A stretch of DNA of 64,000 nucleotides. Source: Candidatus Omnitrophota bacterium (lineage in GTDB: Bacteria > Omnitrophota > Gorgyraeia > Zapsychrales > Zapsychraceae). A program made the translations under genes and the position numbers. The notes below the pieces were generated by a model. It was not told the origin of the DNA, did no database searches, and worked only from the letters and a program-made list of their open reading frames with translations. The DNA lies in assembly GCA_015233405.1 (NCBI GenBank), contig JADFXT010000001.1, positions 169,386 through 233,385 of the forward strand, written 5' to 3'. This document shows, piece by piece, positions 4,796 through 58,504 of the stretch. Numbering within the stretch: the first letter of the stretch is position 1; each line of letters opens with the position of its first letter.

Positions 4796-4811
4796 TTGAA
4801 TAAATTTGAAT

Positions 4812-4910: not shown

Positions 4911-4920
4911 AACAAGATAG

Positions 4921-7718: not shown

Positions 7719-7723
7719 AAAGC

Positions 7724-9807: not shown

Positions 9808-9867
9808 TTATTTAAAATGAAAAGGAAACGAAAGAGGACGGTTCTGTTTTTACAAATTCTATAAATT

Positions 9868-10668
9868 ATGATTATTGACACCCACACTCATTTAGACCAT
9901 ATCAAACACGTTGACGAGGCATTGGTGCGAGCTTATGAAGTGGGCGTCGAGGCGGTTATGGCCGTCGGGATCGATGCGGTCACATCCCGGAGGAATCTGG
10001 AATTAAGCCAACGGCAGGCGGCCAACTGGCCTAAGATTTATTTGGCGTTCGGCATGCATCCGTCTGAAGCTAATGTTGAAGAGCTGAAGGATTGCATTCT
10101 TCTGATGTCCGAGCATGTGGCGCATTTAAAAGCCGTCGGTGAGATCGGGCTCGATTTCTGGTATCCGTGGGTCAAGAAGTCCGACGTCAAGAAAGATGTC
10201 CAGCGGCAGGTTTTCCGTCGGCAACTAGAATTCGCCAAACAGCTCAATTTGCCGGTGATTGTCCATTCTCGTGGCGCGTGGGACGAATGTTATCAGATGG
10301 TAATGGACCTGGGAATTACAAAAGCCCTGTTCCATTGGTACAGCGGACCGGTTGATGTCTTAACAAAAATTTTAGACGCTGGTTTTTATATGTCGGCCAC
10401 ACCGTCGTTGGCCTACAGTCCTCAGGCGCGGGAAGCGGTTAACGTCGTGCCGCTTAACCGATTATTGGTTGAAACCGACAGTCCGGTGACTTTTAGAAGA
10501 CTTAAAGGACAGGCCGACGGTAAAGATGACTGGGAACCATTTGAAGCAGAGCCGAAGGATGTTTTTAAGGCTTTGGACTATGTCGCTGAAATAAAAAAAC
10601 AATCCCGGGAAGATGTCTTAGGGGTTGTGAATGATAACGCAAAACAATTTTTTCGTCTTACCGAATAA
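9868..10668 (+). CDS. tatD: TatD-family metal-dependent hydrolase
   Basis: IDTHTHLD start, GEIGLDF, and HSR...HWYSG motifs. Confidence 0.85.
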   Translation: MIIDTHTHLDHIKHVDEALVRAYEVGVEAVMAVGIDAVTSRRNLELSQRQAANWPKIYLAFGMHPSEANVEELKDCILLMSEHVAHLKAVGEIGLDFWYPWVKKSDVKKDVQRQVFRRQLEFAKQLNLPVIVHSRGAWDECYQMVMDLGITKALFHWYSGPVDVLTKILDAGFYMSATPSLAYSPQAREAVNVVPLNRLLVETDSPVTFRRLKGQADGKDDWEPFEAEPKDVFKALDYVAEIKKQSREDVLGVVNDNAKQFFRLTE

Positions 10669-14973: not shown

Positions 14974-14974
14974 T

Positions 14975-15832
14975 ATGGCCAAATTATTGTCTTCCCCTCA
15001 AATCGAAAAGATCGTCGCTAAGAAAAAGAGCGGTGAAAAGATCACTATGATCGCCGCTTATGATTATCCTTTTGCCTTGTTGGCGGACAGGGCTGACGCG
15101 GATATTATTCTCGTTGGAGATTCCTTGGCCAATGTTGTTCTTGGCCTGGAGAAAACAAAAGACGTGACGATGGACGAGATGATTCATCACGCCAAGGCGG
15201 TACGACGGGCAGTTAAGGATGCGTTGGTCGTCGGTGATATGCCGTTTGAATCTTACCAGAATGACGGGAAAACAGCTGTTTTAAGCGCCCAACGATTTAT
15301 TAAAGAAGCCGGGTGCGACGCGGTCAAGATGGAATGGTCCGACCGTTGCCCCTTATTGACACGAGAAATCCGCGCCGCGGGAATCCCCGTGATGGGACAC
15401 GTTGGCTTGACGCCGCAGACCGCTGAACAATTGGGCGGACTTAAAGTTCAGGGCAAAGATGCGGATTCTGCTCGACGGATTATTCAAAACGCTCTGGAGT
15501 TGGAAGCGTTTGGGTGTTTTAGTATGGTCCTTGAATGTGTTCCTGCACCGCTCGCGAAAATGATCACTAAAAAACTGTCGATCCCGACGATTGGGATTGG
15601 TGCGGGGGTTTATTGCGATGGCCAGGTTTTGGTCCTCCACGATATTTTAGGTCTGTCCACAGGCAAGAATCCTAAATTTGTTAAACAGTATGCTCATTTA
15701 TATGACCAGGTTTTAAGCGCCATTACAAATTTCCGTGAAGATGTTCAAACCAGCCGGTTCCCGGATGCAGAGCATAGTTATTCCATGTCGCCGGAAGAAC
15801 TTCAGAAATTGACAACCCATAACGAGGATTGA
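14975..15832 (+). CDS. panB: 3-methyl-2-oxobutanoate hydroxymethyltransferase
   Basis: MITAYDYPxA, LVGDSLxxVxxG and GIGAG motifs. Confidence 0.9.
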
Positions 15833-24761: not shown

Positions 24762-24814
24762 TTAATTAGCGAGTGATTGATTCATAATAAAACCTTCCTA
24801 ACGGTCAGAAAGAA

Positions 24815-24916
24815 ATACTAAATCCGAAATCCGAAACAAATCCGAAATCTGAAAATTTTAAACATTGAAGTTTGAATTTTTGATTTTTGTTTCGAATTTC
24901 GATATTCGAATTTTAC
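24815..24916. repeat. AT-rich long imperfect palindrome, copy 2
   Basis: AAATCCGAAATCCGAAACAAATCCGAAATC ... TTTGTTTCGAATTTCGATATTCGAATTT. Confidence 0.75.
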
Positions 24917-24997: not shown

Positions 24998-25090
24998 TGA
25001 ACCGAAACGGCAAACCCATCGTAAGGTGGGGACGCAAAGTTAGAGGGTCCTGGAATAGGATAGCCTGACTACCGAAAGCGCTAGAATATT
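24998..25090 (+). promoter_or_regulatory. c-di-GMP-I (GEMM-I) riboswitch-like aptamer
   Basis: ACGGCAAACC-CAUC-GUAA-GGUG-GGGACGCAAAG... matches the conserved GGCAAACC / GNRA hairpin / GGGACGCAAAG blocks of GEMM-I, for example Vc2. Confidence 0.72.
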
Positions 25091-25132: not shown

Positions 25133-25172
25133 GGGATGCTTATGAAGTAAAAGCGATATGAAGAATGTTTTT

Positions 25173-25249
25173 GTCATCCCCGCAATTTTTAGGCGGGGAT
25201 CCACAAGGGTTGAATATATGGATTCCCGACAGAGGCTTTCGGGAATGAC
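25173..25249. repeat. GC-rich hairpin-pair element, copy 2 (in the 5' leader of the giant ORF)
   Basis: GTCATCCCCGCAATTTTTAGGCGGGGATCCAC ... TGGATTCCCGACAGAGGCTTTCGGGAATGAC. Confidence 0.8.
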
Positions 25250-25304
25250 AGCAGTGAAAAAGGAATTACCAGTAGTTTTAGGACGAAAAAAGGGGGCAAT
25301 AAGG

Positions 25305-28300
25305 ATGTTTAGGGGGCAAGGCACAACAAGAAGTAACATACTAAAGACTATTAGTCTTATAGTCCTCTTTATTTTTATTCCTCAGACTTTATTCGCCCAA
25401 ATCTCTTTATCCAATCTTCCAACGCCTGGAACCATGGTCGCAACCAGTGCTTCATTTGTCCCACCGGTGTTAAAAGGGATGAAGGTCGATCTCAAGCAGC
25501 CGTTTCAATTTGATTTTATCCTCGATACCGGAAACTCCAATCTTAAAGATGATGAGCTTAAAGAAGAATCGAATAAACTTATTCGTTATTTTCTCTCGTC
25601 CTTGACCATTCCGGAAAAAGATTTATGGGTCAACTTGTCTCCGTATGAGAAAAATAGGATCATTCCCGACGAGTTTGGCACCACGGAAATGGGCCGCGAC
25701 TTATTGGCGCAGGATTATATCCTTAAACAGATAACGGCTTCGCTTATGTATCCGGAGAATGAAACCGGCAAGGCGTTTTGGCAGAAGGTTTATAAGAAAG
25801 CGTATGACCTTTATGGGACGACCGATATCCCGACGGATACATTTAATAAAGTGTGGATCGTTCCTGATAAAGCTGTTGTTTATGAGAACCCGTCACCTAA
25901 GCCTGGCGAGGCAACGGTGTTTGTGGTCGAGGCGAGGCTGAAGGTGATGTTGGAGGAGGATTATTTTGCGACATCGAATACTGTAGGGGCGGGGTTTCCC
26001 CGCCCTGAGGATAAAGGGCGCGGGAACCGCGCCCCTACGGCAATAATCAAAGAGGTCATTATTCCTATTTTGGAAAAAGAAGTCAATGAGGGCCAGAACT
26101 TCGCCCAACTACGTCAGGTGTATTATTCGCTCATTCTTGCCAAGTGGTACAAGGACAGCCTGAAGGAAAGTATTCTAAACCGTAAATATTCCGGCCAGAA
26201 AAAGGTCATGGGCGTCGACCTGGCTGGCAAAGAAGATAAACAAAAGATCTACGAGCAATATCTCGCGGCGTTTAAGAAAGGCGCATTCAATTACATCAAA
26301 GAAGAATACGATGCCAATTCCAAAACGCTGATCCCTCGTAAATATTTTTCCGGCGGGGCGAATATGGGGAAAGTTCCCTTGGCAAAGACCGGCGATTTGG
26401 CGATGACGTCTAGGAATCAAACTGGGAAATTGTTGGAGGTTGCCGGGAGGCTTATTGATCCGCAGAAGATCGTCGAGAAAGAGACTAGGGATGTCCGCGC
26501 CTTGATGACGGAAGAAGAAAAACAATATTTCCAAAAGGTTTTTCCTGCCCTCAATTTAGAAAAAGCCCTGGAAGTCCCCCCGATAGAAACGGTCCGAAAT
26601 GCTGAAGAATTGAAAAGGAAAAGGACCGATGCCAGAGCCAAAAATTGGGAGAATTATTTAAAGAACCAAAAGGATTTACGAACGGATATCTTGCTTTTAT
26701 TGGCTGATATCAAAAACGGGACGATTTTTACACAACGAGATTTTATAGACCGGTTGGCAGGTCTTAATAAGATTTTATTAACAGGCAAAGATGGCAAAAC
26801 TTTTTATCTTGCACCCACCTTGTCCTCTTTTATGTCCGTAAAAAAACTGCATGCCGATGAGTCCAATCGGCAGAACCAGACACTTTCTGAGCTCGCAGGC
26901 GAATACAGGAGCACCTCAACCAAATACGGCGCGCTCTTAGTAAAATTATTTAGAGAGATTAAAAATTTTACGGAATTAAAGAAAGATTCCAATACCCTTG
27001 ATGTCCTGAAACAGATTGCTTCGATCTATGAAATCGCCATGGAACAATTTTTATTTGTGAGCGGGAACAATTCCTTATTTATGAATATGGCAAACGGCTT
27101 ACTACGGCTTTATGGCTTCGACGGAATCGCCCATTATCAACTTGATATGAAGCTCACCGCCCGTATTTTTGGTAAATCCATTAAGAGGGATTTTATAAAG
27201 CTGGTTTTAAAGGCGAACCCACAGATGTCTTTGCCTGCCCATTGGAAATCGCAGGTATCATCTCGCAAACAAACAATGAAAGAAATTATAGAGGAAAATC
27301 AGCGTTTCGATCGTGCAATGACGGTCAAGAATGATGCGCGCCAGGATTCCACAAAATTGTACAAAAGAATTTCAAGCAGGATACCTATTGTATTACGTCG
27401 TGGTGCGGTTGCTGTTGGATTATTAGGGTTAGCTCTTTTACCTCTAAGCGATAATTTTCAGATGAGAGATCTTCCTCCTGCAAATCTTGCCAAGATTGCG
27501 CTTCAAGGCAATAAGGAAGCTTTGGATATTCTCAAAAATCTTGCGGATGATCAAGGCAATGCTTCCGCCCAAAAAGCTATAGAAACTCTTCCTATTAAAA
27601 CACTGGCGGACCTGACTGCTCAAGGGAATATAACCGCCTTTAGGATTCTCTTAAATCGGATGCGAATGAACAATCTCGTCGCACAGAATGCCTTAAAAAC
27701 TCTGCGCGTTGATTTGCTTGTTCAGCGTTTAAATAAAGGGGACCGAGACGCTTTCTTTCTTCTGCTCGATCTGGGTCAGGATGCTAATAACCTTAATGCT
27801 CAAGAAGCTTTCAACAATATTCAACCGCAGAAACTTGCTGAACTCATTTCCAGAGATGGAAATGTAGGTGCGACAGACATTCTTGAGAATCTTGCTTTAT
27901 GGAAAGATGACACTGGCATTGTGGAAATTTTAAGAACAGTTAAAGTCCAAAAGCTTGCCGAACAGGCCTATCAGGGAAAGAGGGATGCTTTTGATGTTAT
28001 CGCATATCTTTATCAAAAGTATAACAACGTTTCTGCTAAAAACGTTTTAAGTCTATTCCCCGTGCAGAGGATCGTTAAATCTGTTGTTCAGGGGAATATG
28101 GACGCCTATCTTATGTTGGAAAGTCTTAGTGCTTTTAAGAACCTCGGCACGAGAGAGATTTTAAGAAATCTTAATGTCCAACAACTCACCGAACGTGCCT
28201 ATCAGGGGAATAAAGATGCCATAAATATTCTCATCATGTTGGATAAAGACAATCAGAATCCCGCTGCCCAAAAGGCGCTCAAGGATATGGCTGTCCAACT

Positions 28301-31300
28301 TATCTCAAAAGATAAGAAGATCTTTTCCTCTCAAATAAGAAGTCTTATTCCTTATTGCGATTTAAATACCTTGATGGATTTGTTGTTGATCGATAAGTCC
28401 TCGATCAAAGATCCTGAATCTTTTCGCCCAGCTTTATATTATCAGATCGCGGATAGAATTTTATCTGAACTGCAAGCTAATCCGAATCTCGTCGGCAAAG
28501 AAGCCCAATGGGCAAAGTTTAGGAGTAATTATAAAAAAGCTATTGCTGGCATGGAAGGCATAGAACAATATTCTCCCCAAGTGATGGACATCGTCTATAA
28601 GAGCATCGATTTGATGGGGACTGAAAAATTGGCGGCTGTTAGTAAAGAAGTGGAGAATGAATTTCATGTCCCTCCGATGAGAATGCTTTTTTATAATTCT
28701 ATGCCTCGAGCGGTTACCTGGCTTGTCGATGCCTATCAAGAAGTAACCCAGGCAAGTCCGAATAATAAACTTGATTTTAATTTCTTTTATGCCACGGCGC
28801 TTGTGGAAGGTTGGCCTTTAGTTGGGCGGACCGTGATGGAGGGTGCTCAATATTTGGATGTTACAACTACTCAGCCTATGGGGTTAGACAGATTCCCGAG
28901 CGTTATGGATAAGTTGATAAAGGAAAAGAAATTACCAGGAGGAGAAAATTTTAGAAAAAGAATCAATCTTTATAATCACCGCTATCACGGAAGATATCAA
29001 TATGGACAATTTAGAGATGTGACAAGCGCCCTTGATGCTCTTGGCGCGATGATCCTGGAAGATGAGGAGTATTTCCGGCAAGAATTGACCGCAAGAGGTA
29101 TAAATCCAAGTGGTGTGAATGTAGATGCCTTTAGGGTCGGGACCTATCTTCATTTCTGTACGCCTGGGGATCTTTTTAAACAGTACTTTGAAAAATATGC
29201 TCACAACCAAGAAACCGGACGTTATGATCCTCAAGGACTTATCGGCAAAAGAGGAAAAGGTAAAGGAAAACCTGAAGGGCAAGGCGAATTCGGTAATGGT
29301 ATTTACAACGCTCAGTACCTTGGTGCCACAGCTAAGCTGCTAGATTTGTTGTTCCCTCAGATGAACGTTTTACTTAAAACGTCCACCGTCAAACCATCAG
29401 CGAAACAAGAGAATCGTCAGACGTCGCGGTTGCCTTCTTCCGTACAAAATCCAAATAAAGTTTTTTATGAAGCCATTCATAAAAGAAAAGCGGATTTAAA
29501 TGTTGCTTTAAGAAAAGTTTTTGCGGCCAGCGGAGATGTTTTGATTGGACGGTTTACCGGCGGACGGATTTTTAATGAACAAGAAAAAGCCCGCGCCGAA
29601 GCTGCGAATAAAGCGGTCAATATCATTATGGCGGAACAGGCGCATTTGACAAGCTTGTTAAATCGTGCGCTGGATCATTTTGTCGGGAGGAATACAGAGG
29701 CAATACAAAAGCAGAAAGAGGAACTATTTTTTAATAATGTGGCTCGTCTTGTTTCACAACAAAATGGCAGCGCGGACGCGGCGATGACGGTCAGATTTAT
29801 CCGGCCCATCTTGCCGATAGTTTTCTCTGGTTTAATTGCTCTTTTGTCCAATTGTTCACCCGTCTATTTGAACGAAAATCCGATCAATCCTATTCCCACA
29901 TCTGTCGGCGAGCAATCTCCGCAGGAAAGGATTAATTCTTTAGTCCAGGTTGTTCTTAATACTTCAAACACTGTAGATGAACGCGTTAAAGCGTTTGATT
30001 CTTTAAAAAGCCTAAGGGCTGTTGATGCGTTAATTCAGTTATCGATGAGCGAAAAAGCGACTGTCAGCGCACCGGCAACTTACCGGTTGGCGGATCTCAA
30101 CGACTCGACGGCATTTGACAAGGTGCTCAAGATATTTATCAATGGAAAATCGCAGGAGCGGGATAAGACAATTTTTGTTTTAAGCGTGCTTAGCGATAAT
30201 TTGGAGAGAGGACATCCCTATAAATATCTTTTTACATGCCTTCGCGATAGAAGCGATGAACTTGAAAATAAAACATTGTCAGCCCAGGACATGTATTTAG
30301 TTTACAGCAACCACGAGTTTCAACGTTTGACGAATGGGATGGAAGAGAATGATCAATTTAGTGTAGCGCGGGGAATAGAAAATATCCTTGTTCGTTTTCA
30401 TAAGAATATTAACGACCAGAATATTACACTCGCTGCTCCTGATATGGTCGAGGCGTGGCAGACCGAAGGCCATAATTTGGCGCTCGATGGGAACACACAA
30501 GTGATCGCCAGTTTTCACAAAGAGTTCGATAGCGAAAAAGTGAGTTTCGTTGAGCTCATGCGTCCATTCGGCATTATTCTTAAGGAGAATTCGCCGCAAT
30601 TCAGATTATTCTCAGGAAGCAATAATCCTTTCACGCTTTATAAGACGAGAAAAGGCCTTTGGCAAGCGATAGAGAATTCCAAAGGCCAGACATTGTTATT
30701 CTTTGAGCATCATGGCGACGGATTGCATCTCGCTTCTTCAAGTTATCCTACCTTTGGTATGGGGATGTTAAGTTATGACAAATTAGCCAGGAGTTTAAGC
30801 CAACGGGCACGGAAAACCGGAGGAGATCTTTCGAAAGTTACGATTGTTATTAATGCGTGTTATTCGTCGGATTATTCGTTGGAGACGCTCAATGCGCTCT
30901 ACGATGATATCGCTAAACTTTCTCGTGTTCTTATGAATGATAAAGAAATCACAGGTTTCCCGACGATCGTAACTTCCACCAACAGAGGCATGTCAGGTTT
31001 CTCAACGTTAATGAGCATGCAAAAAGTTTTCGCGGGGAAACAAGAAATCCATGTGTCGGATTTTTATGATATCGCACGAGAAATGGCGGGACGGCATCAA
31101 TCCATGGGATTCTTTTTAAATATCCCTCGAGAAAAATTGGAACAATTAAGAAAGAAACTTGGAGCTCCGGATAAAAATGTTAATTATAAAAGCGGCGAAC
31201 AACTGAATCCAAATTTACCGATGTTAAATGCCCAATTATCTCCTAAGACATTCAATGATATTGCTCGTCAGGTTAGTCAAACCGGCAATCCAACTTTTGC

Positions 31301-33701
31301 TGTTGTCATGCCTGGACGCTCCGATGCGGCGATGATGACGGGCGGACAAGCCAAAAAATTCCAGGAATTTTTAGATGAATTATTTCAAAGAGAGAAAGAC
31401 CCGGACAAGGAACTTCTTAAAGCGGTTGTCTCCGGAGCAAAACCCGCGGAATTGGTAGGATATCCTAATTTAAATGCCTATGCATTGAACCTTTATAAGG
31501 AAATGCATAATGCGTTCGGTCTTGATTTTGTGATATCGCAAGAAAGAAATAATATATTGATTTATAACGTCGACGCTTTGAAAAATCGTTTAGTGGCAGC
31601 ACAATATTTATTAAATGATATTAAAGGCGGTGAAACGATTTCTGAGGAAATGCTTGAGACAGACTTGCATGATTTTCTGCAATCGACCTTAGACACGTTT
31701 AAGAGTGACCCTTCCGCTTATCACAAGGTCATCGGCATAGCGGTCGGATATCCGTTATCTAAAGTTTGGGGGTTTGACCCAAATCGTAGCATCACTAGCG
31801 TCGGTCTTCCCATGGCCAGTCAATATGCAGCGGGCGTAAGCGATAAATATGGCAAGGAATTTTTAAAGTGGTTAAAAGGCGGAGCATTGGACTTTCCTAT
31901 TAATGGTAAGGAAGATATTGTTTATTTTGAAGACCAGGCTGGCCATGTTTTTGATTTAGCTGTGATGCCACAGCATTCCCGCGTCGTCGTGGAAAAGGTC
32001 ATGGATGAGCCTATCGAATTTGATTTTGGCAACACCAAAGAGTCGACGATGGCGATAAAATTCAGAATGAAGTTTATCAATAATGAAACAGGCGACACTG
32101 TTGAGGAAAAAACAGTGTATTCCCGGGAAGATAAAACGGTTGTCACTTTAGATGATCAGGGCAAAGAGCTGTCGAGACGTACGACGAGTAATGATAATCA
32201 CAAAGTCAGGGTTGAGAATATTACACCAAGAGTTGTTAACCGCGCGGAGGAATATTTAGATTCGGTTTATGAGATTTTCAAACAAATTAGAAAATTCGAC
32301 TCTCTCGCCGGTGACAAGGCGATGATGAGCAAACCTACTGTCAAGACGATGAAAGGCACTTACGGCGGAGAATGGAAGCTTACCAATACAAATACAACCG
32401 AACTTTTGCCTTTGGAGCAGCGTCAGAAAATCAAGAAGGTCGTCTGGACTTTTTCGGGACGCCGCCTTTCTCGGCCATTGTTAGCAAATGCCATGCTGAT
32501 CCCTCAAATAGAACAATTATTCCCGAATGCACAAATAAATATTTACTGCAATCCTGAACAATATTTACTTAAGGCCATGGCTTATGGAAAGCGCGTACGT
32601 ATTATTAACAAGCTCGAACGACAACACATTACGCGGGATACTTTGGTCATTAATTCTGATTTTACATTTCATGAGGGAAGGTACCCGCATTCTGCCGGTG
32701 TCCTGTCAATGGTAACTACTAATGACATTATATTTAAGAAAGGGTCTGCAATCGCAGAGTATAATTTTGAAAAAGCATATTATGATCTCAAAGATTCTAA
32801 GCAGGGCCTATATTATCGTAGGGCTGCGGATGCCTTGCGGGCGTTAGGGCTTAAGGAGATCAAAGGCGACGAGCCTGTGGTTTTTGGACCGGATCAATTT
32901 AGCGACGAGCTTAAATCGAAAATAGCGGCGATACGACAGACCTATTTTGTTGGTAAACCGAAAGAATCCCCGGTTATTTTCTTTAATGCCGCGTGGGGGT
33001 CTGGGTTATCCCGTGGCGAAAGAGATATAAAGGATTGGCAACAATTAATCGGCAATGTTTTACAGAATACCGATGCGTACATCGTTATTAATAAAGGAGA
33101 TCCTACTTGGGTGTCCAGTCAACAGGGAAAAATGCCTATGCGGTTCCAAATTGATGACTTATATCAAAATTTACGTAAATGGTATCCGAAGCAAGCTCAT
33201 CGTTTGGTTGAGATACCATCTGAAGGCTTAGGCAAAGATCTTATTCGGCTGATGGCCGTCATGTCGTTGTCGGATGCCGTCATCACCGAAAATTCCGGTG
33301 TGACGCACTTGGCTGATTTTATGAATAAACCATGCGCGTCTTTCTTGAATCCTTGGTTTCTTAAGTATATGACCAAACGTGTTGATATTTTGGATGATGA
33401 TTTGCAAAAGGCGGATTTGCAAATCAAGGATTTCTTAAAGAAACAAAATATCAATTATCAACCAGAATCCGACGCGGCGATGAGTACGACGGCGCCCGGC
33501 GGTATTGATTTTAATCCGGATCGTTTGAAGCTCGAAAAGAAAGGCGTTCACAGCGATTTTGATTTGCCGACGGACGCCGGGGATCTTGATAAAATTCAGA
33601 TCAACGGTTTGGTTCCGGTTATTTTGCACATCACGCCTGTTACTAACTTGCCGGTTCTTTTAGGCGCGAATCAGAATAATGAAACAATAAAGCCGCTCTA
33701 A
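25305..33701 (+). CDS. giant modular secreted/membrane-associated protein (about 2,798 aa from ATG 25305)
   Basis: Uninterrupted 8.4-kb ORF. ATG 25305 has AGGGGG 8-14 nt upstream and yields a signal peptide MFRGQGTTRSNILKTISLIVLFIFIPQTLFAQ. The ORF-track start at 25158 translates the repeat element. Confidence 0.85.
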   Translation: MFRGQGTTRSNILKTISLIVLFIFIPQTLFAQISLSNLPTPGTMVATSASFVPPVLKGMKVDLKQPFQFDFILDTGNSNLKDDELKEESNKLIRYFLSSLTIPEKDLWVNLSPYEKNRIIPDEFGTTEMGRDLLAQDYILKQITASLMYPENETGKAFWQKVYKKAYDLYGTTDIPTDTFNKVWIVPDKAVVYENPSPKPGEATVFVVEARLKVMLEEDYFATSNTVGAGFPRPEDKGRGNRAPTAIIKEVIIPILEKEVNEGQNFAQLRQVYYSLILAKWYKDSLKESILNRKYSGQKKVMGVDLAGKEDKQKIYEQYLAAFKKGAFNYIKEEYDANSKTLIPRKYFSGGANMGKVPLAKTGDLAMTSRNQTGKLLEVAGRLIDPQKIVEKETRDVRALMTEEEKQYFQKVFPALNLEKALEVPPIETVRNAEELKRKRTDARAKNWENYLKNQKDLRTDILLLLADIKNGTIFTQRDFIDRLAGLNKILLTGKDGKTFYLAPTLSSFMSVKKLHADESNRQNQTLSELAGEYRSTSTKYGALLVKLFREIKNFTELKKDSNTLDVLKQIASIYEIAMEQFLFVSGNNSLFMNMANGLLRLYGFDGIAHYQLDMKLTARIFGKSIKRDFIKLVLKANPQMSLPAHWKSQVSSRKQTMKEIIEENQRFDRAMTVKNDARQDSTKLYKRISSRIPIVLRRGAVAVGLLGLALLPLSDNFQMRDLPPANLAKIALQGNKEALDILKNLADDQGNASAQKAIETLPIKTLADLTAQGNITAFRILLNRMRMNNLVAQNALKTLRVDLLVQRLNKGDRDAFFLLLDLGQDANNLNAQEAFNNIQPQKLAELISRDGNVGATDILENLALWKDDTGIVEILRTVKVQKLAEQAYQGKRDAFDVIAYLYQKYNNVSAKNVLSLFPVQRIVKSVVQGNMDAYLMLESLSAFKNLGTREILRNLNVQQLTERAYQGNKDAINILIMLDKDNQNPAAQKALKDMAVQLISKDKKIFSSQIRSLIPYCDLNTLMDLLLIDKSSIKDPESFRPALYYQIADRILSELQANPNLVGKEAQWAKFRSNYKKAIAGMEGIEQYSPQVMDIVYKSIDLMGTEKLAAVSKEVENEFHVPPMRMLFYNSMPRAVTWLVDAYQEVTQASPNNKLDFNFFYATALVEGWPLVGRTVMEGAQYLDVTTTQPMGLDRFPSVMDKLIKEKKLPGGENFRKRINLYNHRYHGRYQYGQFRDVTSALDALGAMILEDEEYFRQELTARGINPSGVNVDAFRVGTYLHFCTPGDLFKQYFEKYAHNQETGRYDPQGLIGKRGKGKGKPEGQGEFGNGIYNAQYLGATAKLLDLLFPQMNVLLKTSTVKPSAKQENRQTSRLPSSVQNPNKVFYEAIHKRKADLNVALRKVFAASGDVLIGRFTGGRIFNEQEKARAEAANKAVNIIMAEQAHLTSLLNRALDHFVGRNTEAIQKQKEELFFNNVARLVSQQNGSADAAMTVRFIRPILPIVFSGLIALLSNCSPVYLNENPINPIPTSVGEQSPQERINSLVQVVLNTSNTVDERVKAFDSLKSLRAVDALIQLSMSEKATVSAPATYRLADLNDSTAFDKVLKIFINGKSQERDKTIFVLSVLSDNLERGHPYKYLFTCLRDRSDELENKTLSAQDMYLVYSNHEFQRLTNGMEENDQFSVARGIENILVRFHKNINDQNITLAAPDMVEAWQTEGHNLALDGNTQVIASFHKEFDSEKVSFVELMRPFGIILKENSPQFRLFSGSNNPFTLYKTRKGLWQAIENSKGQTLLFFEHHGDGLHLASSSYPTFGMGMLSYDKLARSLSQRARKTGGDLSKVTIVINACYSSDYSLETLNALYDDIAKLSRVLMNDKEITGFPTIVTSTNRGMSGFSTLMSMQKVFAGKQEIHVSDFYDIAREMAGRHQSMGFFLNIPREKLEQLRKKLGAPDKNVNYKSGEQLNPNLPMLNAQLSPKTFNDIARQVSQTGNPTFAVVMPGRSDAAMMTGGQAKKFQEFLDELFQREKDPDKELLKAVVSGAKPAELVGYPNLNAYALNLYKEMHNAFGLDFVISQERNNILIYNVDALKNRLVAAQYLLNDIKGGETISEEMLETDLHDFLQSTLDTFKSDPSAYHKVIGIAVGYPLSKVWGFDPNRSITSVGLPMASQYAAGVSDKYGKEFLKWLKGGALDFPINGKEDIVYFEDQAGHVFDLAVMPQHSRVVVEKVMDEPIEFDFGNTKESTMAIKFRMKFINNETGDTVEEKTVYSREDKTVVTLDDQGKELSRRTTSNDNHKVRVENITPRVVNRAEEYLDSVYEIFKQIRKFDSLAGDKAMMSKPTVKTMKGTYGGEWKLTNTNTTELLPLEQRQKIKKVVWTFSGRRLSRPLLANAMLIPQIEQLFPNAQINIYCNPEQYLLKAMAYGKRVRIINKLERQHITRDTLVINSDFTFHEGRYPHSAGVLSMVTTNDIIFKKGSAIAEYNFEKAYYDLKDSKQGLYYRRAADALRALGLKEIKGDEPVVFGPDQFSDELKSKIAAIRQTYFVGKPKESPVIFFNAAWGSGLSRGERDIKDWQQLIGNVLQNTDAYIVINKGDPTWVSSQQGKMPMRFQIDDLYQNLRKWYPKQAHRLVEIPSEGLGKDLIRLMAVMSLSDAVITENSGVTHLADFMNKPCASFLNPWFLKYMTKRVDILDDDLQKADLQIKDFLKKQNINYQPESDAAMSTTAPGGIDFNPDRLKLEKKGVHSDFDLPTDAGDLDKIQINGLVPVILHITPVTNLPVLLGANQNNETIKPL
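25983..26038. repeat. GC-rich compound palindrome embedded in-frame in the giant ORF
   Basis: GTAGGGGCGGGGTTTCCCCGCCCTGAGGATAAAGGGCGCGGGAACCGCGCCCCTAC. The outer ends GTAGGGGCG/CGCCCCTAC are reverse complements, with two inner hairpins. Confidence 0.75.
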
Positions 33702-47355: not shown

Positions 47356-47357
47356 GA

Positions 47358-47475
47358 ATCCTAAATCCGAATATCGAAATACGAAACAAATTTTAAAATT
47401 TTAAGAATCAAAAAGCCTTTCGAATTTCGGATTTGAATTTATTGTTTAGAATTTTGATATTCGGATTTCAATTTT
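47358..47475. repeat. AT-rich long imperfect palindrome, copy 3
   Basis: AAATCCGAATATCGAAATACGAAACAAA ... TTCGAATTTCGGATTTG ... GATATTCGGATTTC. It shares a central AAGAATCAAAAA block with copy 4. Confidence 0.75.
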
Positions 47476-47478
47476 TTA

Positions 47479-47593
47479 TTGAGCAACAATAAGCCACGAC
47501 CGACCACGAAACGTGCGAGGAAGTGGTTGAACGATCAAGAAAACACGACCGAGCACGAAACGTGCGAGGAAGTGGTTGAGCAACGGCGAAACC
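47479..47593 (+). repeat. start-codon-proximal leader repeat array B (2 short units plus terminal GAGCAACGGCGAAACC|ATG)
   Basis: Two units of 48-49 nt: ...CACGACCGA(C/G)CACGAAACGTGCGAGGAAGTGGTTGA... Confidence 0.85.
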
Positions 47594-48034
47594 ATGCGTA
47601 AACGAACCGAATCACGAGAAGCTGCTTTGAAAGTCCTTTACCAGGCGGAAATCACCCGCCGGGAAATCAGCGTTGCCTCTGAAAATTTTTGGGCCGACCG
47701 TGAGGATATTGATGATACCGTCCTGAAATTTTGCGAGCGTATCACTTCTGGCGTTCAAAAGCATTTTCAAGAGATCGACGACAAGATCGTCCATTATGCT
47801 GCCAATTGGCAATTGAAGCGTATGGCGGTGATTGACCGCAACATTTTAAGAATCGGCGTATTTGAAATGCTTTTCACCTCCGATGTTCCCCCGAAGGTTT
47901 GTATCAATGAAGCCGTGGAACTGGCAAAGAAATATGGCGACCTTGATTCCAGCAAGTTCGTCAATGGCATCCTGGATAAAATCCATAAAGTTGAAATCCT
48001 TTCCAAAGATAAAGACCATGAGCCAGTGGGCTGA
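47594..48034 (+). CDS. nusB: transcription antitermination factor NusB
   Basis: MRKRTESREAALKVLYQ... It is 146 aa from ATG 47594, with a DRNILRIGVFE motif. Confidence 0.9.
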   Translation: MRKRTESREAALKVLYQAEITRREISVASENFWADREDIDDTVLKFCERITSGVQKHFQEIDDKIVHYAANWQLKRMAVIDRNILRIGVFEMLFTSDVPPKVCINEAVELAKKYGDLDSSKFVNGILDKIHKVEILSKDKDHEPVG

Positions 48035-48857
48035 TCTTCACATCCATACCACTTTCTCCGATAGCACATTGTCTCCCCTAGATGTCGTTAAAGATGCGTA
48101 CAAAAATGGCGTCGATTGTATCGGCATCACGGATCACGATACTGTGGCGGGCATTCTTCCGACGATCAATGAGGCCAAGAAATATAATATTGAGGTTGTT
48201 CCGGCCATTGAACTTTCGTCGGAATTAAACGGCCGGGATATCCATGTCTTAGGATATTATTTTGATTACCATAACGCAGCCTTTGTCAATCAGCTTTCCA
48301 GTATGCAAAATACGCGCGTCGAACGGATGGACAAAATGATCGGGAAATTGCATGACCTTTTCGGGATTAATAATATTTCCCTTAAAGAAGTTTGTGCTTT
48401 GGCGGGGACAAAATCCGTCGGAAGGCCTCATTTAGCGACGAAATTGATTGAGAAAGGCTGGGTGTCCGATATTCCCACGGCTTTTAATAAATTTATCGGC
48501 GAGCGGGCCCCGGCGTATGTTCCTAAATTTAAGCAAACCCCTCAGGAAGCGGTTCAGTTCATTCACAAGGCCGGCGGAGCGGCCGTATTGGCGCATCCGG
48601 TCATCACGCAGATCGATGAGCTCATTCCCCAATTGGTGGCCTCCGGGCTCGACGGACTTGAGGTCTATTACCCAAATGTTTCCGGTAATATTACTCGATT
48701 CTATGAGGGTATGGCCCAGAAACATGATCTTGTTATGACGGGCGGCTCAGATGCCCACGGTACAGCCAAGGTTTATGAATATATCGGCATGGTGAAAGTT
48801 TCTTATGCGCGGGTTGAAGAATTAAAGAAACGGGCTGAGAGGTATAAAAAAATTTAA
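48018..48857 (+). CDS. PHP-domain phosphoesterase (TrpH/YciV-like)
   Basis: ADLHIHTTFSD, ITDHD and GGSDAHG motifs. The ORF-track start at 47862 overlaps nusB out of frame. Confidence 0.8.
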   Translation: MSQWADLHIHTTFSDSTLSPLDVVKDAYKNGVDCIGITDHDTVAGILPTINEAKKYNIEVVPAIELSSELNGRDIHVLGYYFDYHNAAFVNQLSSMQNTRVERMDKMIGKLHDLFGINNISLKEVCALAGTKSVGRPHLATKLIEKGWVSDIPTAFNKFIGERAPAYVPKFKQTPQEAVQFIHKAGGAAVLAHPVITQIDELIPQLVASGLDGLEVYYPNVSGNITRFYEGMAQKHDLVMTGGSDAHGTAKVYEYIGMVKVSYARVEELKKRAERYKKI

Positions 48858-48988
48858 ATTCGAAATACGAAAAACGAAATAAATTTTAAATTTCCAAGAA
48901 TCAAAAAATCTTTTGAATTGTTTCGCTTTTCGATATTCGGGTTTCGAATTTGTTTCGGATTTCGTGTTTAGAGTTTCGAGTTTCAAAA
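48856..48988. repeat. AT-rich long imperfect palindrome, copy 4
   Basis: AAATTCGAAATACGAAAAACGAAAT ... TTTCGATATTCGGGTTTCGAATTTGTTTCGGATTTCG. Confidence 0.75.
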
Positions 48989-50082: not shown

Positions 50083-50086
50083 CTTC

Positions 50087-50114
50087 TGTCATTCCCGCCT
50101 TCGCGGGGATGACA
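50087..50114. repeat. solo GC-rich hairpin (same family as the hairpin-pair elements)
   Basis: TGTCATTCCCGCCTTCGCGGGGATGACA. Confidence 0.75.
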
Positions 50115-50152: not shown

Positions 50153-50779
50153 ATGTTCTCAGGCATTATTGAAGAAACCGGTATCGTGGAAGAAATTGAA
50201 AAGAAGCCAAATCTTTGCGTTTTAAAGGTAAGAGCCAAAAAAGTTTTAAAAGACGCCAAGCTGGGATCCAGCATCGCTGTCGACGGGGTTTGTTTGACCG
50301 TGACCGCTATCAAGAAAGATATTTTGTCCTTTGATATCATGCTCGAAACGATGAAGAAAACGACACTGGGTTCCGTAAAGCCGAAGACGCATGTCAATCT
50401 GGAGCGGTCCTTAAAGATGAGCGACCGGATCTGCGGGCATTTTGTCTCAGGCCATGTGGATGCTATGCAATCCGTCACCAAGATCATTACGGGCGAGAAT
50501 TATACGGAATTGCGGATAAGCCTGACAAAAGAACTTCATAAATATGTGGTGCCTAAAGGCTCTGTTGCGCTCGACGGCGTGAGTTTGACCGTCGGAGATG
50601 TGAGACAGAAAGATTTCTCAGTATATTTGATTCCATTCACGCTTCAAGTGACGAATTTAGGCTATAAAAAAGAAGGTAGTCCGATCAATATTGAGACCGA
50701 TATTTTGGCGAAATATTTATTCGCCCAGTCTCGGGATAAAAGTTCTAATCCGTATTCGTTTAAGAAAGACAATAATTGA
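50153..50779 (+). CDS. ribE: riboflavin synthase
   Basis: MFSGIIEETG start and duplicated ...SIAVDGVCLTV / ...SVALDGVSLTV lumazine-binding repeats. Confidence 0.9.
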   Translation: MFSGIIEETGIVEEIEKKPNLCVLKVRAKKVLKDAKLGSSIAVDGVCLTVTAIKKDILSFDIMLETMKKTTLGSVKPKTHVNLERSLKMSDRICGHFVSGHVDAMQSVTKIITGENYTELRISLTKELHKYVVPKGSVALDGVSLTVGDVRQKDFSVYLIPFTLQVTNLGYKKEGSPINIETDILAKYLFAQSRDKSSNPYSFKKDNN

Positions 50780-50783: not shown

Positions 50784-51024
50784 TCACTACGACCGAGCAC
50801 GTAACCTGACTGCCGTCAGGCAGGTGTGTTAGGAAGTGGTTGAGTAACAAAGAAACTACGACCGAGCACGTAACCTGACTGTTGTCAGGTAGGTGTGTGA
50901 GGAAGTGGTCAAGCAACAAGAAACCACGACCGAGGACGTAATGTCCGAGGAAGTGGTCAAGCAACAAGAAACCACGACCGAGGACGTAATGTCCGAGGAA
51001 GTGGTCGAGCCAACAGGCGAGACC
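50784..51024 (+). repeat. start-codon-proximal leader repeat array C (2 long plus 2 short units, terminal ...GGCGAGACC|ATG)
   Basis: The long units carry the nested hairpin CCTGACTGCCGTCAGGCAGG. The two 48-nt short units are identical (CAAGCAACAAGAAACCACGACCGAGGACGTAATGTCCGAGGAAGTGGT). Confidence 0.9.
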
Positions 51025-52263
51025 ATGAAAAAACGCGTTGTCATCACCGGTGCAGGGATCATTGCCAGTAACGGAAAGGGCAAGGAAGAGTTTTGGCAAA
51101 ATCTTCAAGACGGCAAGACCGGCTATCGGCCCATTACGTTATTTGAGACCGGGGATTTTCTGGTCAATATGGCGGGTGAGATCACGGATTTTGACGCCTC
51201 GCTTTACGTCGGGAAAAAGGGTTTAAGGCTTTTAGACCGAAGCACCCGGCTTCTTATTTCTGCCGCGCATTTAGCCATTGCAGATAGCCAATTACAGATA
51301 ACGGATGATAATACCGACGATGTCGGCGTTTCCGTGGGAACGACCTTCGGCAGCTTAAAGAGTATCAGCGATTTTGACGAGGTGACGCTGCGCGAAGGCC
51401 CGCGGTATACCAATCCCGCACTTTTCCCCAATACGGTCATCAATTCTCCGGCCAGCCAGGTGTCCATTTGGAACAATATCCAGGGATTTAATACGACGAT
51501 TTCGACGGGATTCACCTCCAGCATTGATGCGATGAGCTATGCATATGATTTTTTACAGATGGAACGCGTTAAGGTGGTTTATACCGGAAGCGTTGAGGAG
51601 CTTTGCCGTCAGACGTACGACGGATTTCATTCACTACAATTTTTATCCGGCTCGAAGCAAGGCGAGGCGTTCGTCAATTGCCCGTTCGATAAACGGCGTA
51701 ACGGGATAACGCTCGGTGAAGGTGCGGGCTTGATTTCTATGGAAGATCATGCGCATGCCGTCGAGAGAAAAGCACCTGTTCTCGCTGAAGTCCTTGGGTT
51801 TGGTTACAGCTTTGACCCGTTTCGTATTCACAAATATAATCCCCGCGGCACAGGGTTAAAAGAGTCGCTTCGGCAGGCCTTAGAGAACGCTCAATTGGAA
51901 TTAAAGGACATCGATTATATTTGCGCTAATGCCAATTCCACGCAAGCTGCGGATAGAATTGAAACGCAGGCGATCAAAGAAGTTTTTGGCGAATGGGCGT
52001 ATAAAATTCCAGTCAGTTCGATCAAATCCATGACCGGGGAATGTTTTAGCGTCTCGGGGACTTTTGCCGTGATCGCGTCTTTAGGCGCGTTGGCTAAAGA
52101 TTTCATTCCTCCGACGGTGAATTATAAAGAAAAAGACCCGGAGTGTGATTTGGATTACGTTCCTAACGTTGCCAGAAAGGCGCGGCTCAATAATATTTTG
52201 ATCATCACCTTCGGCCCGAATGGCAGTAATAGTTGCATGGTGATTGGAAGGTATCGGGGATAG
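51025..52263 (+). CDS. beta-ketoacyl-ACP synthase II-like protein lacking the Cys-His-His catalytic triad
   Basis: It is 412 aa from ATG 51025 and collinear with FabF as I recall it. Positions matching FabF C163/H303/H340 read F163 (51511-51513), N302 (51928-51930) and E339 (52039-52041). Confidence 0.8.
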   Translation: MKKRVVITGAGIIASNGKGKEEFWQNLQDGKTGYRPITLFETGDFLVNMAGEITDFDASLYVGKKGLRLLDRSTRLLISAAHLAIADSQLQITDDNTDDVGVSVGTTFGSLKSISDFDEVTLREGPRYTNPALFPNTVINSPASQVSIWNNIQGFNTTISTGFTSSIDAMSYAYDFLQMERVKVVYTGSVEELCRQTYDGFHSLQFLSGSKQGEAFVNCPFDKRRNGITLGEGAGLISMEDHAHAVERKAPVLAEVLGFGYSFDPFRIHKYNPRGTGLKESLRQALENAQLELKDIDYICANANSTQAADRIETQAIKEVFGEWAYKIPVSSIKSMTGECFSVSGTFAVIASLGALAKDFIPPTVNYKEKDPECDLDYVPNVARKARLNNILIITFGPNGSNSCMVIGRYRG

Positions 52264-52274
52264 CTCATTTTGTT

Positions 52275-52373
52275 GTCATCCCCGCGAAAGCGGGGATCCA
52301 GGATACGGGGTAAGTTTCAACAGGAATCAAAAGCTTAAAACATTAACTGGATTCCCGCTTACGCGGGAATGAC
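52275..52373. repeat. GC-rich hairpin-pair element, copy 3
   Basis: GTCATCCCCGCGAAAGCGGGGATCCAG ... CTGGATTCCCGCTTACGCGGGAATGAC. It is 99 bp, the same length as copy 1. Confidence 0.85.
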
Positions 52374-52399
52374 AGAAAAGAATAAAAGAGGAATATTTT

Positions 52400-54515: not shown

Positions 54516-57306
<2,791 letters not shown>

Positions 57307-57486
57307 CCATGCCCGAGGAGGACTGAGGACGAAACCTGACTGCCGTCAGGCAGGTGTCCGAAGAAGTGGTTGAACAATGAAGAAAACACGACTGAGGACG
57401 AAAGGTCTGAAGAAGTGGTTGAACAGCAACAGAACCCATGCCCGAGGACGAAATGTCCGAGGAAATGGTTGAGCAACGGCGAAACC
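57307..57486 (+). repeat. start-codon-proximal leader repeat array D (1 long plus 2 short units, terminal GAGCAACGGCGAAACC|ATG)
   Basis: CCATGCCCGAGGAGGACTGAGGACGAAAC[CTGACTGCCGTCAGGCAGG]TGTCCGAAGAAGTGGTTGAAC..., followed by two shorter units. Confidence 0.9.
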
Positions 57487-58374
57487 ATGGAACATTTTAT
57501 CGAAGAGTTCATTAATTATCTAGGCGTCGAGCGAGGACTGTCGGATAATACGCTTTTAGCGTACCGTCGAGACCTGGAGAAATACGTCCAGCATCTTAAG
57601 AAGGCGGACGTCCTGGATATTGATCAGGTCAAGAAAGAACAGATCACGCAATTTATGTTCGCCGAGAAAGAATCAGGGCTGTCCGCGAATTCGATCTCTC
57701 GTTCTTTAGCTGCGATAAAAATGTTTCACCGTTTTTTGGTCCGCGAAAGGCTAGCTAAGGAAGACCCGACGAACTTAGTTGATACTCCGAAATTGTGGAA
57801 ACGGGTGCCAGAGGTCTTGTCCTCTTCTGAGATCGAGGCCATGATCCAGGCGTCCAAAGGACGGGGCGCCCAAGCCGTTCGGGACAATGCTGTTTTGGAA
57901 TTGCTTTACGCGACGGGAATGCGTGTTTCTGAACTTGTAAATTTAAAGCTTGAGAATGTCAATCTTGAGGTCGGATATGTGCGCTGCGTCGGAAAAGGAC
58001 GTAAAGAACGTCTGGTGCCAATGGGCCGTAGGGCTAAAGAGGCGGTGTCCAAATATTGCGAGTCTGTCCGGAAAAAACAGGCCAAAGACAATTTCATTCC
58101 GTTTTTATTTTTAAGCCGGTTGGGCAAAAAGATCAGCCGCCAAAGTATTTGGAAGATCGTGAAGCTTTACGCCCAGAAAGCCAAAGTCAAAAGGGAGATC
58201 AAACCGCACACTTTACGACATAGTTTTGCTACGCACTTATTGGAGCATGGTGCGGATTTGCGTTCTGTGCAAGAGATGCTCGGGCATTCGGATATTTCGA
58301 CGACACAAATTTATACACATGTTGATAAAGAACGCTTAAAAAGTATTCATCAGCAATTTCATCCGAGAGGCTAA
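57487..58374 (+). CDS. xerD: tyrosine recombinase XerD/XerC
   Basis: It is 295 aa from ATG 57487. It has FxxYLxVERGLSxNTLxAYRRDL at the N-terminus and a C-terminal R...HxLRH...Y catalytic set. Confidence 0.85.
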   Translation: MEHFIEEFINYLGVERGLSDNTLLAYRRDLEKYVQHLKKADVLDIDQVKKEQITQFMFAEKESGLSANSISRSLAAIKMFHRFLVRERLAKEDPTNLVDTPKLWKRVPEVLSSSEIEAMIQASKGRGAQAVRDNAVLELLYATGMRVSELVNLKLENVNLEVGYVRCVGKGRKERLVPMGRRAKEAVSKYCESVRKKQAKDNFIPFLFLSRLGKKISRQSIWKIVKLYAQKAKVKREIKPHTLRHSFATHLLEHGADLRSVQEMLGHSDISTTQIYTHVDKERLKSIHQQFHPRG

Positions 58375-58381
58375 TAAGGCT

Positions 58382-58483
58382 GTCATTCCCACAAAAGTGG
58401 GAATCCAGTAAATTTTTTTAAGATTTTGGTTCATTGTTTGCGTTTAACCCATTATTCTGGATCCCCGCTTTCGCGGGGATGAC
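58382..58483. repeat. GC-rich hairpin-pair element, copy 4
   Basis: GTCATTCCCACAAAAGTGGGAATCCAG ... CTGGATCCCCGCTTTCGCGGGGATGAC. Confidence 0.85.
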
Positions 58484-58504
58484 AAAGGTAGGGAAGGGGA
58501 TTTC

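Follow-up and report, generated by a model that had tools for sequence, protein, structure and literature searches.

Two types of bacterial repeats come closest to the element described here. MIRU are 40-100-bp tandem repeats between cistrons, with ends that overlap the neighbouring genes and with small open reading frames (ORFs) (Supply et al. 1997 via PMC3184786), and the REP2 repeats of Neisseria provide stem-loops and a ribosome-binding site as well as an ATG before unrelated genes (PMC3184786). We analysed a 64-kb window (64,000 nucleotides of Candidatus Omnitrophota bacterium, assembly GCA_015233405.1, contig JADFXT010000001.1, positions 169,386 to 233,385; coordinates below are counted from the first letter of this stretch) that contains four same-strand arrays of a hairpin-forming repeat, each running exactly up to the ATG of a gene: dtd, nusB, a fabF-like gene and xerD. 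Repeats that end at start codons appear unusual, yet by analogy they resemble the repeat types known in mycobacteria and Neisseria. Our preferred reading, to which we give about an even chance, is that the family is a lineage-restricted non-coding hairpin repeat of the MIRU/REP2/REP kind with a built-in translation-initiation module.

The units agree with MIRU in size (40-100 bp), in being often tandem, in lying between genes of the same operon (with which MIRU are co-transcribed) and in being absent from the orthologous sites of relatives; their ends touch the flanking stop and start codons, and copy number varies by unit. The small ORFs of MIRU overlap the stop and start codons of the genes beside them, whereas here no ORF runs through any array from stop to start, and with periods of 48, 49, 50 and 69 nt the frames vary from array to array. 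The present family also has a strongly covarying hairpin and a specialised terminal subtype, belongs to another phylum and has no sequence similarity to MIRU. Like REP2 (CREN) and the IR repeats of Borrelia (PMC3184786), it is dispersed, lacks terminal inverted repeats and has two RNA stem-loops (predicted here); as with REP2, it stands immediately upstream of unrelated ORFs and the ATG falls within the repeat (here the A of the ATG, by the unit boundary at locus L001 described below). REP2, in contrast, is 120-150 bp long, not tandem and equipped with a promoter, where the scanned arrays B, C and D lack any sigma-70-like site; the Shine-Dalgarno (SD)-like block of our unit is mis-spaced (17 nt) and its tail pairs weakly with the anti-SD. 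With the REP/BIME sequences of enterobacteria and pseudomonads the family shares short imperfect intercistronic palindromes near the upstream stop codon, clustering and species specificity; REP are transcribed and can modulate operon expression. REP clusters usually alternate in orientation, carry a 5' GTAG, lie downstream of genes and leave the next SD intact, whereas all units here are direct, lack GTAG, and abut and apparently rebuild the ATG.

Four repeat arrays that end at start codons

The arrays span positions 8637-8735 (A), 47479-47594 (B), 50790-51025 (C) and 57310-57487 (D) and precede the following genes.

8735-9178, + strand: dtd (D-Tyr-tRNA deacylase), 147 aa, Pfam Tyr_Deacylase, after array A
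47594-48034, + strand: nusB, 146 aa, Pfam NusB, after array B
51025-52263, + strand: fabF-like ketoacyl-ACP synthase, 412 aa, assigned by homologues, after array C
57487-58374, + strand: xerD-like tyrosine recombinase, 295 aa, Pfam Phage_integrase and SAM_1, after array D

Together they hold 10-11 units of 48-51 nt each (69 nt with a nested palindrome), with the alignment consensus AAACCACGACCGAGGACGAAATGTCCGAGGAAGTGGTTGAGCAAC..GAAACC. The 19-nt core GAGGAAGTGGTTGAGCAAC was matched nine times at no more than three mismatches, always on the + strand, against none in 100 shuffles; a gapped pattern of hairpin plus core gave six matches against 0 expected, and Tandem Repeats Finder (TRF) reported periods of 69, 48 and 50 nt. 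A covariance model made from 12 units (R1), run with filters off over both strands of the 64 kb, matched family units only, and a looser motif search of the window found no additional copies. All four arrays marked in the initial annotation are present at the positions given there. Its count of eleven units holds roughly, as one of them (A2) is 5'-truncated and the short fragments B0 and D0 come in addition. The covariance scan that it had proposed for recording orientation returns only array units in the window, and any orientation bias is confounded by gene direction: because nearly all window genes lie on the + strand, the strand bias of the family is inseparable from it. Rfam, at gathering and permissive thresholds, holds no family for the repeat. 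At E up to 10 the single match in array C was Yfr1 at 12 bits, and the gathering-level matches in the window, one tRNA and one c-di-GMP riboswitch, both lie outside the arrays.

The units are listed below (HP1, the unit hairpin in its short form; HP2, a second hairpin in the terminal tail; both are described after the list).

8637-8707, + strand: unit A1, head CAACC, HP1 with a nested 20-nt palindrome at 8652-8671, aberrant tail GAGGCUCCCCCCGAAAUCA, R1 52.1 bits; begins 4 nt past the recO stop TAA at 8630-8632
8708-8735, + strand: unit A2, 5'-truncated terminal (T-type) unit AGGGAGUGAUUGAGCAUAGGCGAAACCA; its final A begins the dtd ATG (8735-8737)
47479-47496, + strand: fragment B0, an internal-type unit reduced to its 3' tail (TTGAGCAACAATAAGCCA), adjoining an AT-rich palindromic block at 47357-47468
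47497-47544, + strand: unit B1, internal (I-type), HP1 stem CCACG/CGUGC, tail GAACGAUCAAGAAAACA, R1 53.5 bits
47545-47594, + strand: unit B2, terminal, T-type short, HP1 GCACG/CGUGC, HP2 GUGGUU-GA-GC-AACG-GC-GA-AACCAU, 78.3 bits; its final A begins the nusB ATG (47594-47596)
50790-50858, + strand: unit C1, nested palindrome variant CCTGACTGCCGTCAGGCAGG at 50805-50824, R1 59 bits; separated from the ribE stop TGA at 50777-50779 by a native spacer of 10 nt
50859-50926, + strand: unit C2, decayed nested palindrome at 50874-50893, internal-type tail
50927-50974, + strand: unit C3, plain internal unit of 48 nt, R1 60.3 bits
50975-51025, + strand: unit C4, terminal, T-type long, HP2 GUGGUC-GA-GCC-AACA-GGC-GA-GACCAU with the compensatory change GGUC/GACC, R1 72.6 bits; its final A begins the fabF ATG (51025-51027)
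57310-57321, + strand: fragment D0, unit head only (TGCCCGAGGAGG), preceded by the upstream stop TAA at 57304-57306 and then CCA, so that array D both begins and ends with AACCATG
57322-57388, + strand: unit D1, nested palindrome at 57335-57354, middle helix CU/AG in place of CC/GG (compensatory), R1 55.4 bits
57389-57438, + strand: unit D2, plain internal unit with the CU/AG variant of D1
57439-57487, + strand: unit D3, terminal, T-type short, head UGCCC (the D2/D3 junction reads AUG), compensatory outer helix CCAU/AUGG, HP2 AUGGUU...AACCAU, R1 75 bits; its final A begins the xerD ATG (57487-57489)

The ATG stands at the array end in place of the ACG that heads internal units, just as first described. 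Reading from it gives 147, 146, 412 and 295 aa, lengths that had been called canonical and that are supported by Pfam and by the starts of orthologues: FabF homologues have 410-415 aa, in keeping with the 412-aa reading, and the alignment of XerD with an orthologue of 295 aa begins at residue 1. The public FabF record (P0001) has 452 aa, the first 40 of which are translated repeat units (window 50905-51024); we regard this call as an annotation artefact, made because the frame is open through part of array C.

At many window genes a canonical SD, AAGGAGG or a similar sequence, stands 6-9 nt upstream of the start; within 20 nt of the four array-gene ATGs there is none. The SD-like block GAGGAAGUGGU has a predicted pairing energy of -12.6 kcal/mol with a generic anti-SD, compared with -3.7 to -4.5 for the terminal tails. 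It ends 17 nt before the AUG, a spacing that bears out the earlier view of an extended SD-like block too far off for normal use, with 17 nt as the distance found here. The fabF gene is generally indispensable. As no canonical SD is left and fabF is among the genes concerned, we reason that the terminal unit must support initiation. A scan of arrays B, C and D found no promoter or terminator consensus, and a promoter or terminator role was dropped for want of consensus sites in these three arrays.

Minimum-free-energy (MFE) folding gives a 40-nt hairpin per unit, ACCAC-GA-CC-GA-GGACG-AAA-UGUCC-GA-GG-AA-GUGGU, in which three helices are separated by symmetric purine 2x2 internal loops (GA/GA and GA/AA); the loop purines of both are unpaired and invariant across the units. 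HP1 is the short form CC-GA-GGACG-AAA-UGUCC-GA-GG, extendable to the 40-nt hairpin (ACCAC.../...GUGGU). The array folds have z-scores of -5.9, -2.1 and -2.6. Paired cells make up 92.9% of the alignment, against 29-47% with the partners slid, and the observed covariation score was reached in 0/500 shuffles. Double-sided changes occur at three pairs of the unit hairpin. In the inner stem, G-C becomes C-G (arrays B, C; pair 15:45 is GC in eight units and CG in four), so that the compensatory change between GGACG/UGUCC and GCACG/CGUGC reported in the initial annotation is real. C-G becomes U-A in the middle helix (D1, D2) and in the outer helix (D3). The stem of the nested palindrome contributes a fourth double-sided change, from A-U to C-G. 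The outer pairing GACC/GGUY, also put forward initially, is compatible with the alignment (97.9% of cells paired) but has no double-sided change and leaves the changes of D1/D2 and D3 unexplained; the alternative register, ACCAC/GUGGU plus CC/GG, gains two extra independent double changes and is the MFE fold. CsrA/RsmA-type sites, suggested on the strength of recurrent GGA motifs, do not fit: these motifs lie in stems or at internal-loop edges, and the apical loop is AAA or UAA. Since the + strand has 19 G-U cells and 0 A-C cells, the folded molecule should be either the sense RNA or + strand single-stranded DNA (ssDNA), which this count does not distinguish.

The last unit of every array is a distinct terminal subtype. 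Its tail, GAGC(C)AAC(N)GGCGA(A/G)ACC, is common to the arrays and the L001 copies and is unlike the ..CAACAAGAAACC-like tails of internal units. It is predicted to fold as HP2, GUGGUY-GA-GC(C)-loop-(G)GC-GA-RACCAU, the outer pairs of which, start-codon A and U included, are intact (6/6) in B2, C4, D3 and both L001 copies; for HP1 and HP2 together, 98.6% of the cells are paired. The GGUC/GACC of C4 compared with GGUU/AACC elsewhere is a compensatory change, and the long form adds one inner-stem C-G pair. Predicted stabilities of HP1+HP2 versus the long hairpin are -15.7 versus -14.8 kcal/mol in B2, -15.4 versus -14.4 kcal/mol in D3 and -22.6 versus -17.9 kcal/mol in C4. According to these models the terminal unit can switch folds, one of which would free the AUG while the other would pair the AUG and expose GAGGAA. 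Traits of RNA thermometers (ROSE, fourU) were not found in it: there is no normally spaced SD, no fourU/ROSE motif and no Rfam match.

Gene junctions, unit boundaries and array growth

Arrays A, C and D fill nearly the whole gap between the ATG and the stop codon of the co-directional upstream gene, which is recO (A), ribE (C) or a small putative lipoprotein gene (D), with stop-to-repeat gaps of 4, 10 and 3 nt. The synteny ribBA-ribH-nusB-PHP-ribD-ribE-fabF-fabG ... ligA-lipoprotein-xerD is kept in relatives (FabF ~73-76% identical), and the orthologous proteins have their N-termini at the point that matches the array-end ATG. The orthologous junctions are empty or different in loci L003, L004, L007, L008 and L009: in L003 ribE and fabF have 4 nt in common, in L008 they lie 7 nt apart, and the lipoprotein gene overlaps xerD by 17 nt in L004. 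R1 found no copies in 13 loci from relatives, save a weak diverged copy in L015. From the tight or overlapping junctions in relatives we concluded that the arrays are lineage-specific insertions.

When one genome from each of 185,579 species was scanned with the pattern, the family turned up at just one further locus, L001 (CAZBHY010000043.1), which has two copies. The same kind of scan in metagenomes returned only an isolated match without the rest of the unit, in an apparent elongation-factor gene, and a viral-collection scan for the unit returned none. L001 is labelled as an uncultured Planctomycetales metagenome-assembled genome (MAG), probably through a mistake in binning or labelling: every named homologue of its DnaX comes from Omnitrophota (50-63% identity), and its zeta-toxin gene shares 59% identity with one in the Omnitrophota locus L008. 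Cross-phylum spread was rejected on the same two genes, which give no evidence for it. Both L001 copies are of the terminal subtype; they occupy the leader of a tRNA gene that contains a group I intron and are preceded by a consensus TTGACA-17-TATAAT promoter. Comparison with the intact tRNA and the syntenic L015 places each copy inside a duplicated tRNA 5' fragment, CCTG^C(G/A)ACCGAGG...GGCGAAACCA^TAGCTCA (carets mark the points of insertion). The insertion is a clean 51 nt between tRNA positions 7 and 8 of the pseudo-tRNA, without target duplication, and gives the unit the boundaries CGACC...AAACCA. Applied to the window, this phase (A^CGACC...AACCA^TG) would have each unit separate the A of a start codon from its TG, and would explain both the ACG heads (old A plus CG) and the rebuilt ATG (the unit's last A). 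The native 5' flanks AAAACA (A), TCACTA (C) and TAACCA (D) match AACC at 9/12 positions (P ~3e-4), which suggests a target preference or relics of older units; the L001 target, CCTG^TAGC, is unlike AACCA.

The intron-tRNA leader is full of insertions (L015 9880-10240; L001 4075-4430), including duplicated tRNA 5' fragments and the nested 20-nt palindrome listed above; the L015 leader holds a 78-aa GIY-YIG ORF at 9968-10204 (Pfam E 9e-15), and the L001 leader the two repeat units. Downstream of the tRNA, the two loci (DnaX 68% identical) share a conserved non-coding block at L001 3850-3945 (- strand) and L015 10630-10722, which reads AGUUCUGACCG-(variable hairpin)-RAGGAAAUGGUGCCGAAUYAG.G.GAGGCACCRGAGUCCUC. 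It carries motifs of the family, (C)UGACCG..stem..RAGGAAAUGGUGCC...GGCACC, with GACCGAG and CGAGG in L015 and GACCGCA and AAGG in L001. The first stem is wholly replaced between the loci with its pairing kept, and Rfam has no match for the block. It may be a small RNA or the ancestral copy of the family.

Units of one array have private variants in common, namely GUAA loops (C), GCACG/CGUGC (B) and CU/AG (D1, D2), which argues for local tandem duplication or gene conversion. The order of subtypes is the same in all arrays (palindrome-bearing units, plain internal units, terminal unit), and internal-type tails are similar across arrays. Two growth scenarios fit: a composite multi-unit leader could have been dispersed and then duplicated, or the same codon could have been hit repeatedly by a changing master copy.

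The nested hairpin of 19-20 nt that the initial annotation placed in the 5'-most units of arrays A, C and D is present there; it turns out to be a separate palindrome found in many unrelated contigs. The 20-nt insert occurs in A1, C1, C2 and D1. Its exact form CCTGCCTGCCGGCAGGCAGG was found in 35 stretches of a viral-contig collection (2-6 copies in some) and at L015 9914-9933, and the variant CCTGACTGCCGTCAGGCAGG of C1 and D1 occurs exactly in four more viral-contig stretches. The palindrome-bearing viral contigs range in GC from 37 to 68%, and the sites are tRNA D-loops, variable loops and the loops of other hairpin repeats (L016-L054). Direct repeats of at least 6 nt (lengths 6-14 nt) flank the palindrome in 6/46 contexts against 0.7 expected. 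The two differences between CCTGCCTGCCGGCAGGCAGG and CCTGACTGCCGTCAGGCAGG are compensatory in a shifted fold, CCTGNC-TGCC-GNCAGG. A literature search found no paper with the 20-nt palindrome sequence. By these comparisons the palindrome is an independent micro-element and not a part of the family.

Proposed mechanism and competing explanations

In the mechanism that we propose, the repeat would behave as a small non-autonomous insertion/duplication element of Omnitrophota. Its basic unit of ~51 nt, CGACC...AAACCA, would enter in sense orientation directly on start codons, between A and TG, where the old A plus CG would form ACG and the last A of the unit would rebuild the ATG. Local tandem duplication or gene conversion would then produce arrays of 2-4 units, which would have taken the place of tight or overlapping cistron junctions, with no canonical SD remaining. 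Ribosomes would be recruited by the terminal unit, likeliest via GAGGAAGUGGU with the inner hairpin of HP2 shortening the 17-nt spacer, or else through a standby site beside the A/C-rich open tail; the upstream units would serve as a structured intercistronic spacer. The candidate routes of initiation are capture by the SD-like block with the spacing shortened by a hairpin, use of a standby site, or occlusion by HP2 in a regulated manner. In the leaders of gene 38 and gene 25 of phage T4, a distant SD is brought effectively closer to the AUG by a hairpin between the two. Those leaders are single, gene-specific and experimentally shown, whereas for the terminal unit such bridging is inferred.

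Several points weigh against this reading. The evidence base consists of four loci of one 64-kb window plus one foreign locus. The array-private variants favour local duplication or conversion over repeated independent insertion, and the similar internal tails fit dispersal of a composite leader no less than insertion of units one by one. In the most stable predicted folds the SD-like block is paired and the AUG is occluded by HP2; with the block also 17 nt off, the terminal unit could equally repress translation. The units are young paralogues, and their conservation and some of the covariation could reflect shared descent or gene conversion of palindromes. The L001 element does not precede an ORF, so the start-codon association is not intrinsic to the sequence, and no transposase or RAYT-like gene was found among the ~30 window ORFs scanned. 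Both mobility and insertion inside the ATG are inferred from sequence comparison. Among the three roles offered by the initial annotation (standby or decoy platform, protein-binding leader, selfish element targeting start codons), the last is the best supported, by the 51-nt L001 insertion, the phase and the flanks; the standby or decoy platform is a conceivable role. A stronger form of the proposal, in which the unit is a 51-nt mobile element that integrates inside start codons (A^UG) by pairing of GUGGU(U) with the target ...ACCA^U, rebuilds the AUG and brings SD-independent or hairpin-bridged initiation, seems to us unlikely.

A cis-regulatory RNA regulon is a possible but doubtful explanation. 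Here the units would be protein sites or a 30S standby/decoy platform, their copy number would tune the translation of dtd, nusB, fabF and xerD, and they would have been selected as regulators and not as selfish DNA. The purines of the 2x2 loops, invariant and unpaired, and the sense-strand-specific structure would suit such a role; HP2, which pairs the start-codon A and U and whose 5' arm is the 3' half of the SD-like block, has the layout of a translational operator, and the related single-copy block of L001 and L015, its first stem replaced yet paired, suggests RNA selection. The four genes, however, have no functional link, the motif is absent from the orthologous junctions in six relatives, and the presence of the family in a single other genome out of 185,579 species is not typical of a regulon motif; local duplication changes the copy number, Rfam has no match, and no candidate binding protein was identified. 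It is likewise improbable that we are dealing with a purely DNA-level selfish element with no RNA role, that is, with + strand ssDNA hairpins moved in trans by an HUH/Y1 transposase (IS200/IS605-PATE or REP/RAYT style) under a GUGGU(U) guide that pairs with ACCA^T. What the units would share with the palindrome-associated elements of IS200/IS605 is a strand-specific imperfect hairpin (here with conserved mismatches), insertion without target duplication (L001), guide pairing (HP2 pairs the element end plus the first flanking T, and the 5' flanks are AACCA-like) and replication-strand orientation (all units lie on the strand that bears the G-rich leading-strand sequence, the lagging-strand template). 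The present family has no known transposase and a much smaller unit; its target preference is no more than suggested, and the IS200/IS605-derived elements are not associated with start codons. Nor can a target of 4-5 nt explain 4/4 arrays at an ATG, as ~1% of intergenic positions abut an ATG and AACC precedes only 0.7% of window ATGs. Essential genes have lost their SD, so such an element must at least supply initiation; no transposase was found among the ~30 window ORFs scanned, which says nothing about the rest of the genome, and the L001 target CCTG^TAGC mismatches AACCA.

Translation of the repeats, either as acidic N-terminal extensions (TTEDEMSEEVVEQQE repeats) or as small MIRU-style coupling ORFs, we find scarcely credible. 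One frame of the unit is open, the 48-/69-nt periods of array C keep 44 codons in the fabF frame as in the public 452-aa call, and GAGGA plus 5 nt plus AUG occurs in the HP1 loop of C3, C4, D3 and the L001 copies. Arrays B and D, however, have periods of 49-50 nt, only array C is continuously in frame, in-frame stops precede the ATG by 7 codons in array A and by 22 in array B, and the orthologues have the same length and start at the array-end ATG. The loop AUG is missing from array B and A1, and short and long tails shift its frame. The 44-aa peptide had no match in an exhaustive HMMER search of 1.84 billion representative proteins, nor did a composite repeat peptide in a word-indexed search of a 5.8-billion-protein collection. 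The coupling ORF was dropped, as its frames are inconsistent between arrays. RNA processing modules, whether self-cleaving or RNase III/RNase P sites, that divide the polycistronic transcript at or near the AUG into individual, possibly leaderless mRNAs are very unlikely too. Tandem structured units of ~50 nt with conserved GA/AG loops beside helices recall hammerhead domain 2, the heads of D1 and D2 read CUGAGGA, hairpins with the nested palindrome reach ~24 pairs (non-canonical ones included), and the unit boundary is exactly the start codon. The hammerhead core is of the CUGAGGA...GAAA type, from which CCGAGGA and GAGGAA depart. Most units have CCGAGGA, and GAGGAA instead of GAAA follows the stem; no ribozyme family matched at E up to 10, and there is no evidence for leaderless initiation in the host. 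The hammerhead/hairpin-ribozyme reading of CUGAGGA...GAAA was rejected on the prevailing CCGAGGA and the lack of a model match, and a tRNA-like 3' end (ACCA) on the lack of an adjoining acceptor-like helix.

Other junction repeats and implications

Several other small hairpin repeat families occur at intergenic junctions of the host and its relatives. In the window, TGTCATCCCCGCGAAAGCGGGGATCCAG hairpins form a second family, mostly as inverted pairs (4804-4911, 50084-50114, 52267-52375, 58374-58485), whose copies begin a few nt past stop codons (fabF and xerD included) and leave the SD of the next gene intact, as in REP/BIME. A third family comprises AT-rich AAATCCGAAA repeats followed by the inverse TTTCGGATTT (7720-7878, 24812-24913, 47357-47468, 48855-48984) in longer intergenic regions before recO, the riboswitch, array B and ribD. 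The riboswitch, of the c-di-GMP-I-GGC family (25000-25077, 60.1 bits, gathering 59), lies directly upstream of a 2847-aa ORF at 25158-33701. Relatives have their own unrelated hairpin elements at the ribH-nusB and ribE-fabF junctions (L004 5733-5820 and 9597-9680; L007 3498-3559 and 6476-6556; L003 3161-3294), for example GTCATTGCGAG...CTCGCAATGAC in L004 and, in L007, a 17-bp hairpin with perfect pairing. In L004, moreover, an unrelated 98-nt tandem repeat at 9695-10001 (3.1 copies, 98% matches) ends exactly at the fabF ATG; the array end reads gattcattt^ATGG and the internal junctions gattcattt^AGTGG or AATGG (carets here mark repeat ends), and a diverged single copy lies at 14970-15125, upstream of a FabA-like gene. 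These junction repeats, together with the 98-nt repeat at the fabF ATG, indicate that the phenomenon is broader than the present family.

For practical purposes the arrays mislead gene callers, as in the public FabF record that is 40 residues too long, and they could serve as variable-number markers for strain typing in the manner of MIRU. If integration into start codons is true, the order of subtypes would record successive hits, palindrome units first, plain units next and the terminal unit last, and the 98-nt repeat of L004 would be a parallel case, making start-codon-directed repeat growth general in Omnitrophota. If the terminal unit drives initiation, it would be a compact transferable module that works without a normally spaced SD in an organism that uses SDs, and it would bear on how the ribosome finds start codons behind stable structures. 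The arrays also illustrate how the very compact genomes of an uncultured phylum put up with repeat invasion, in that at tight operon junctions elements may survive only by rebuilding the start codon and the ribosome-binding function.

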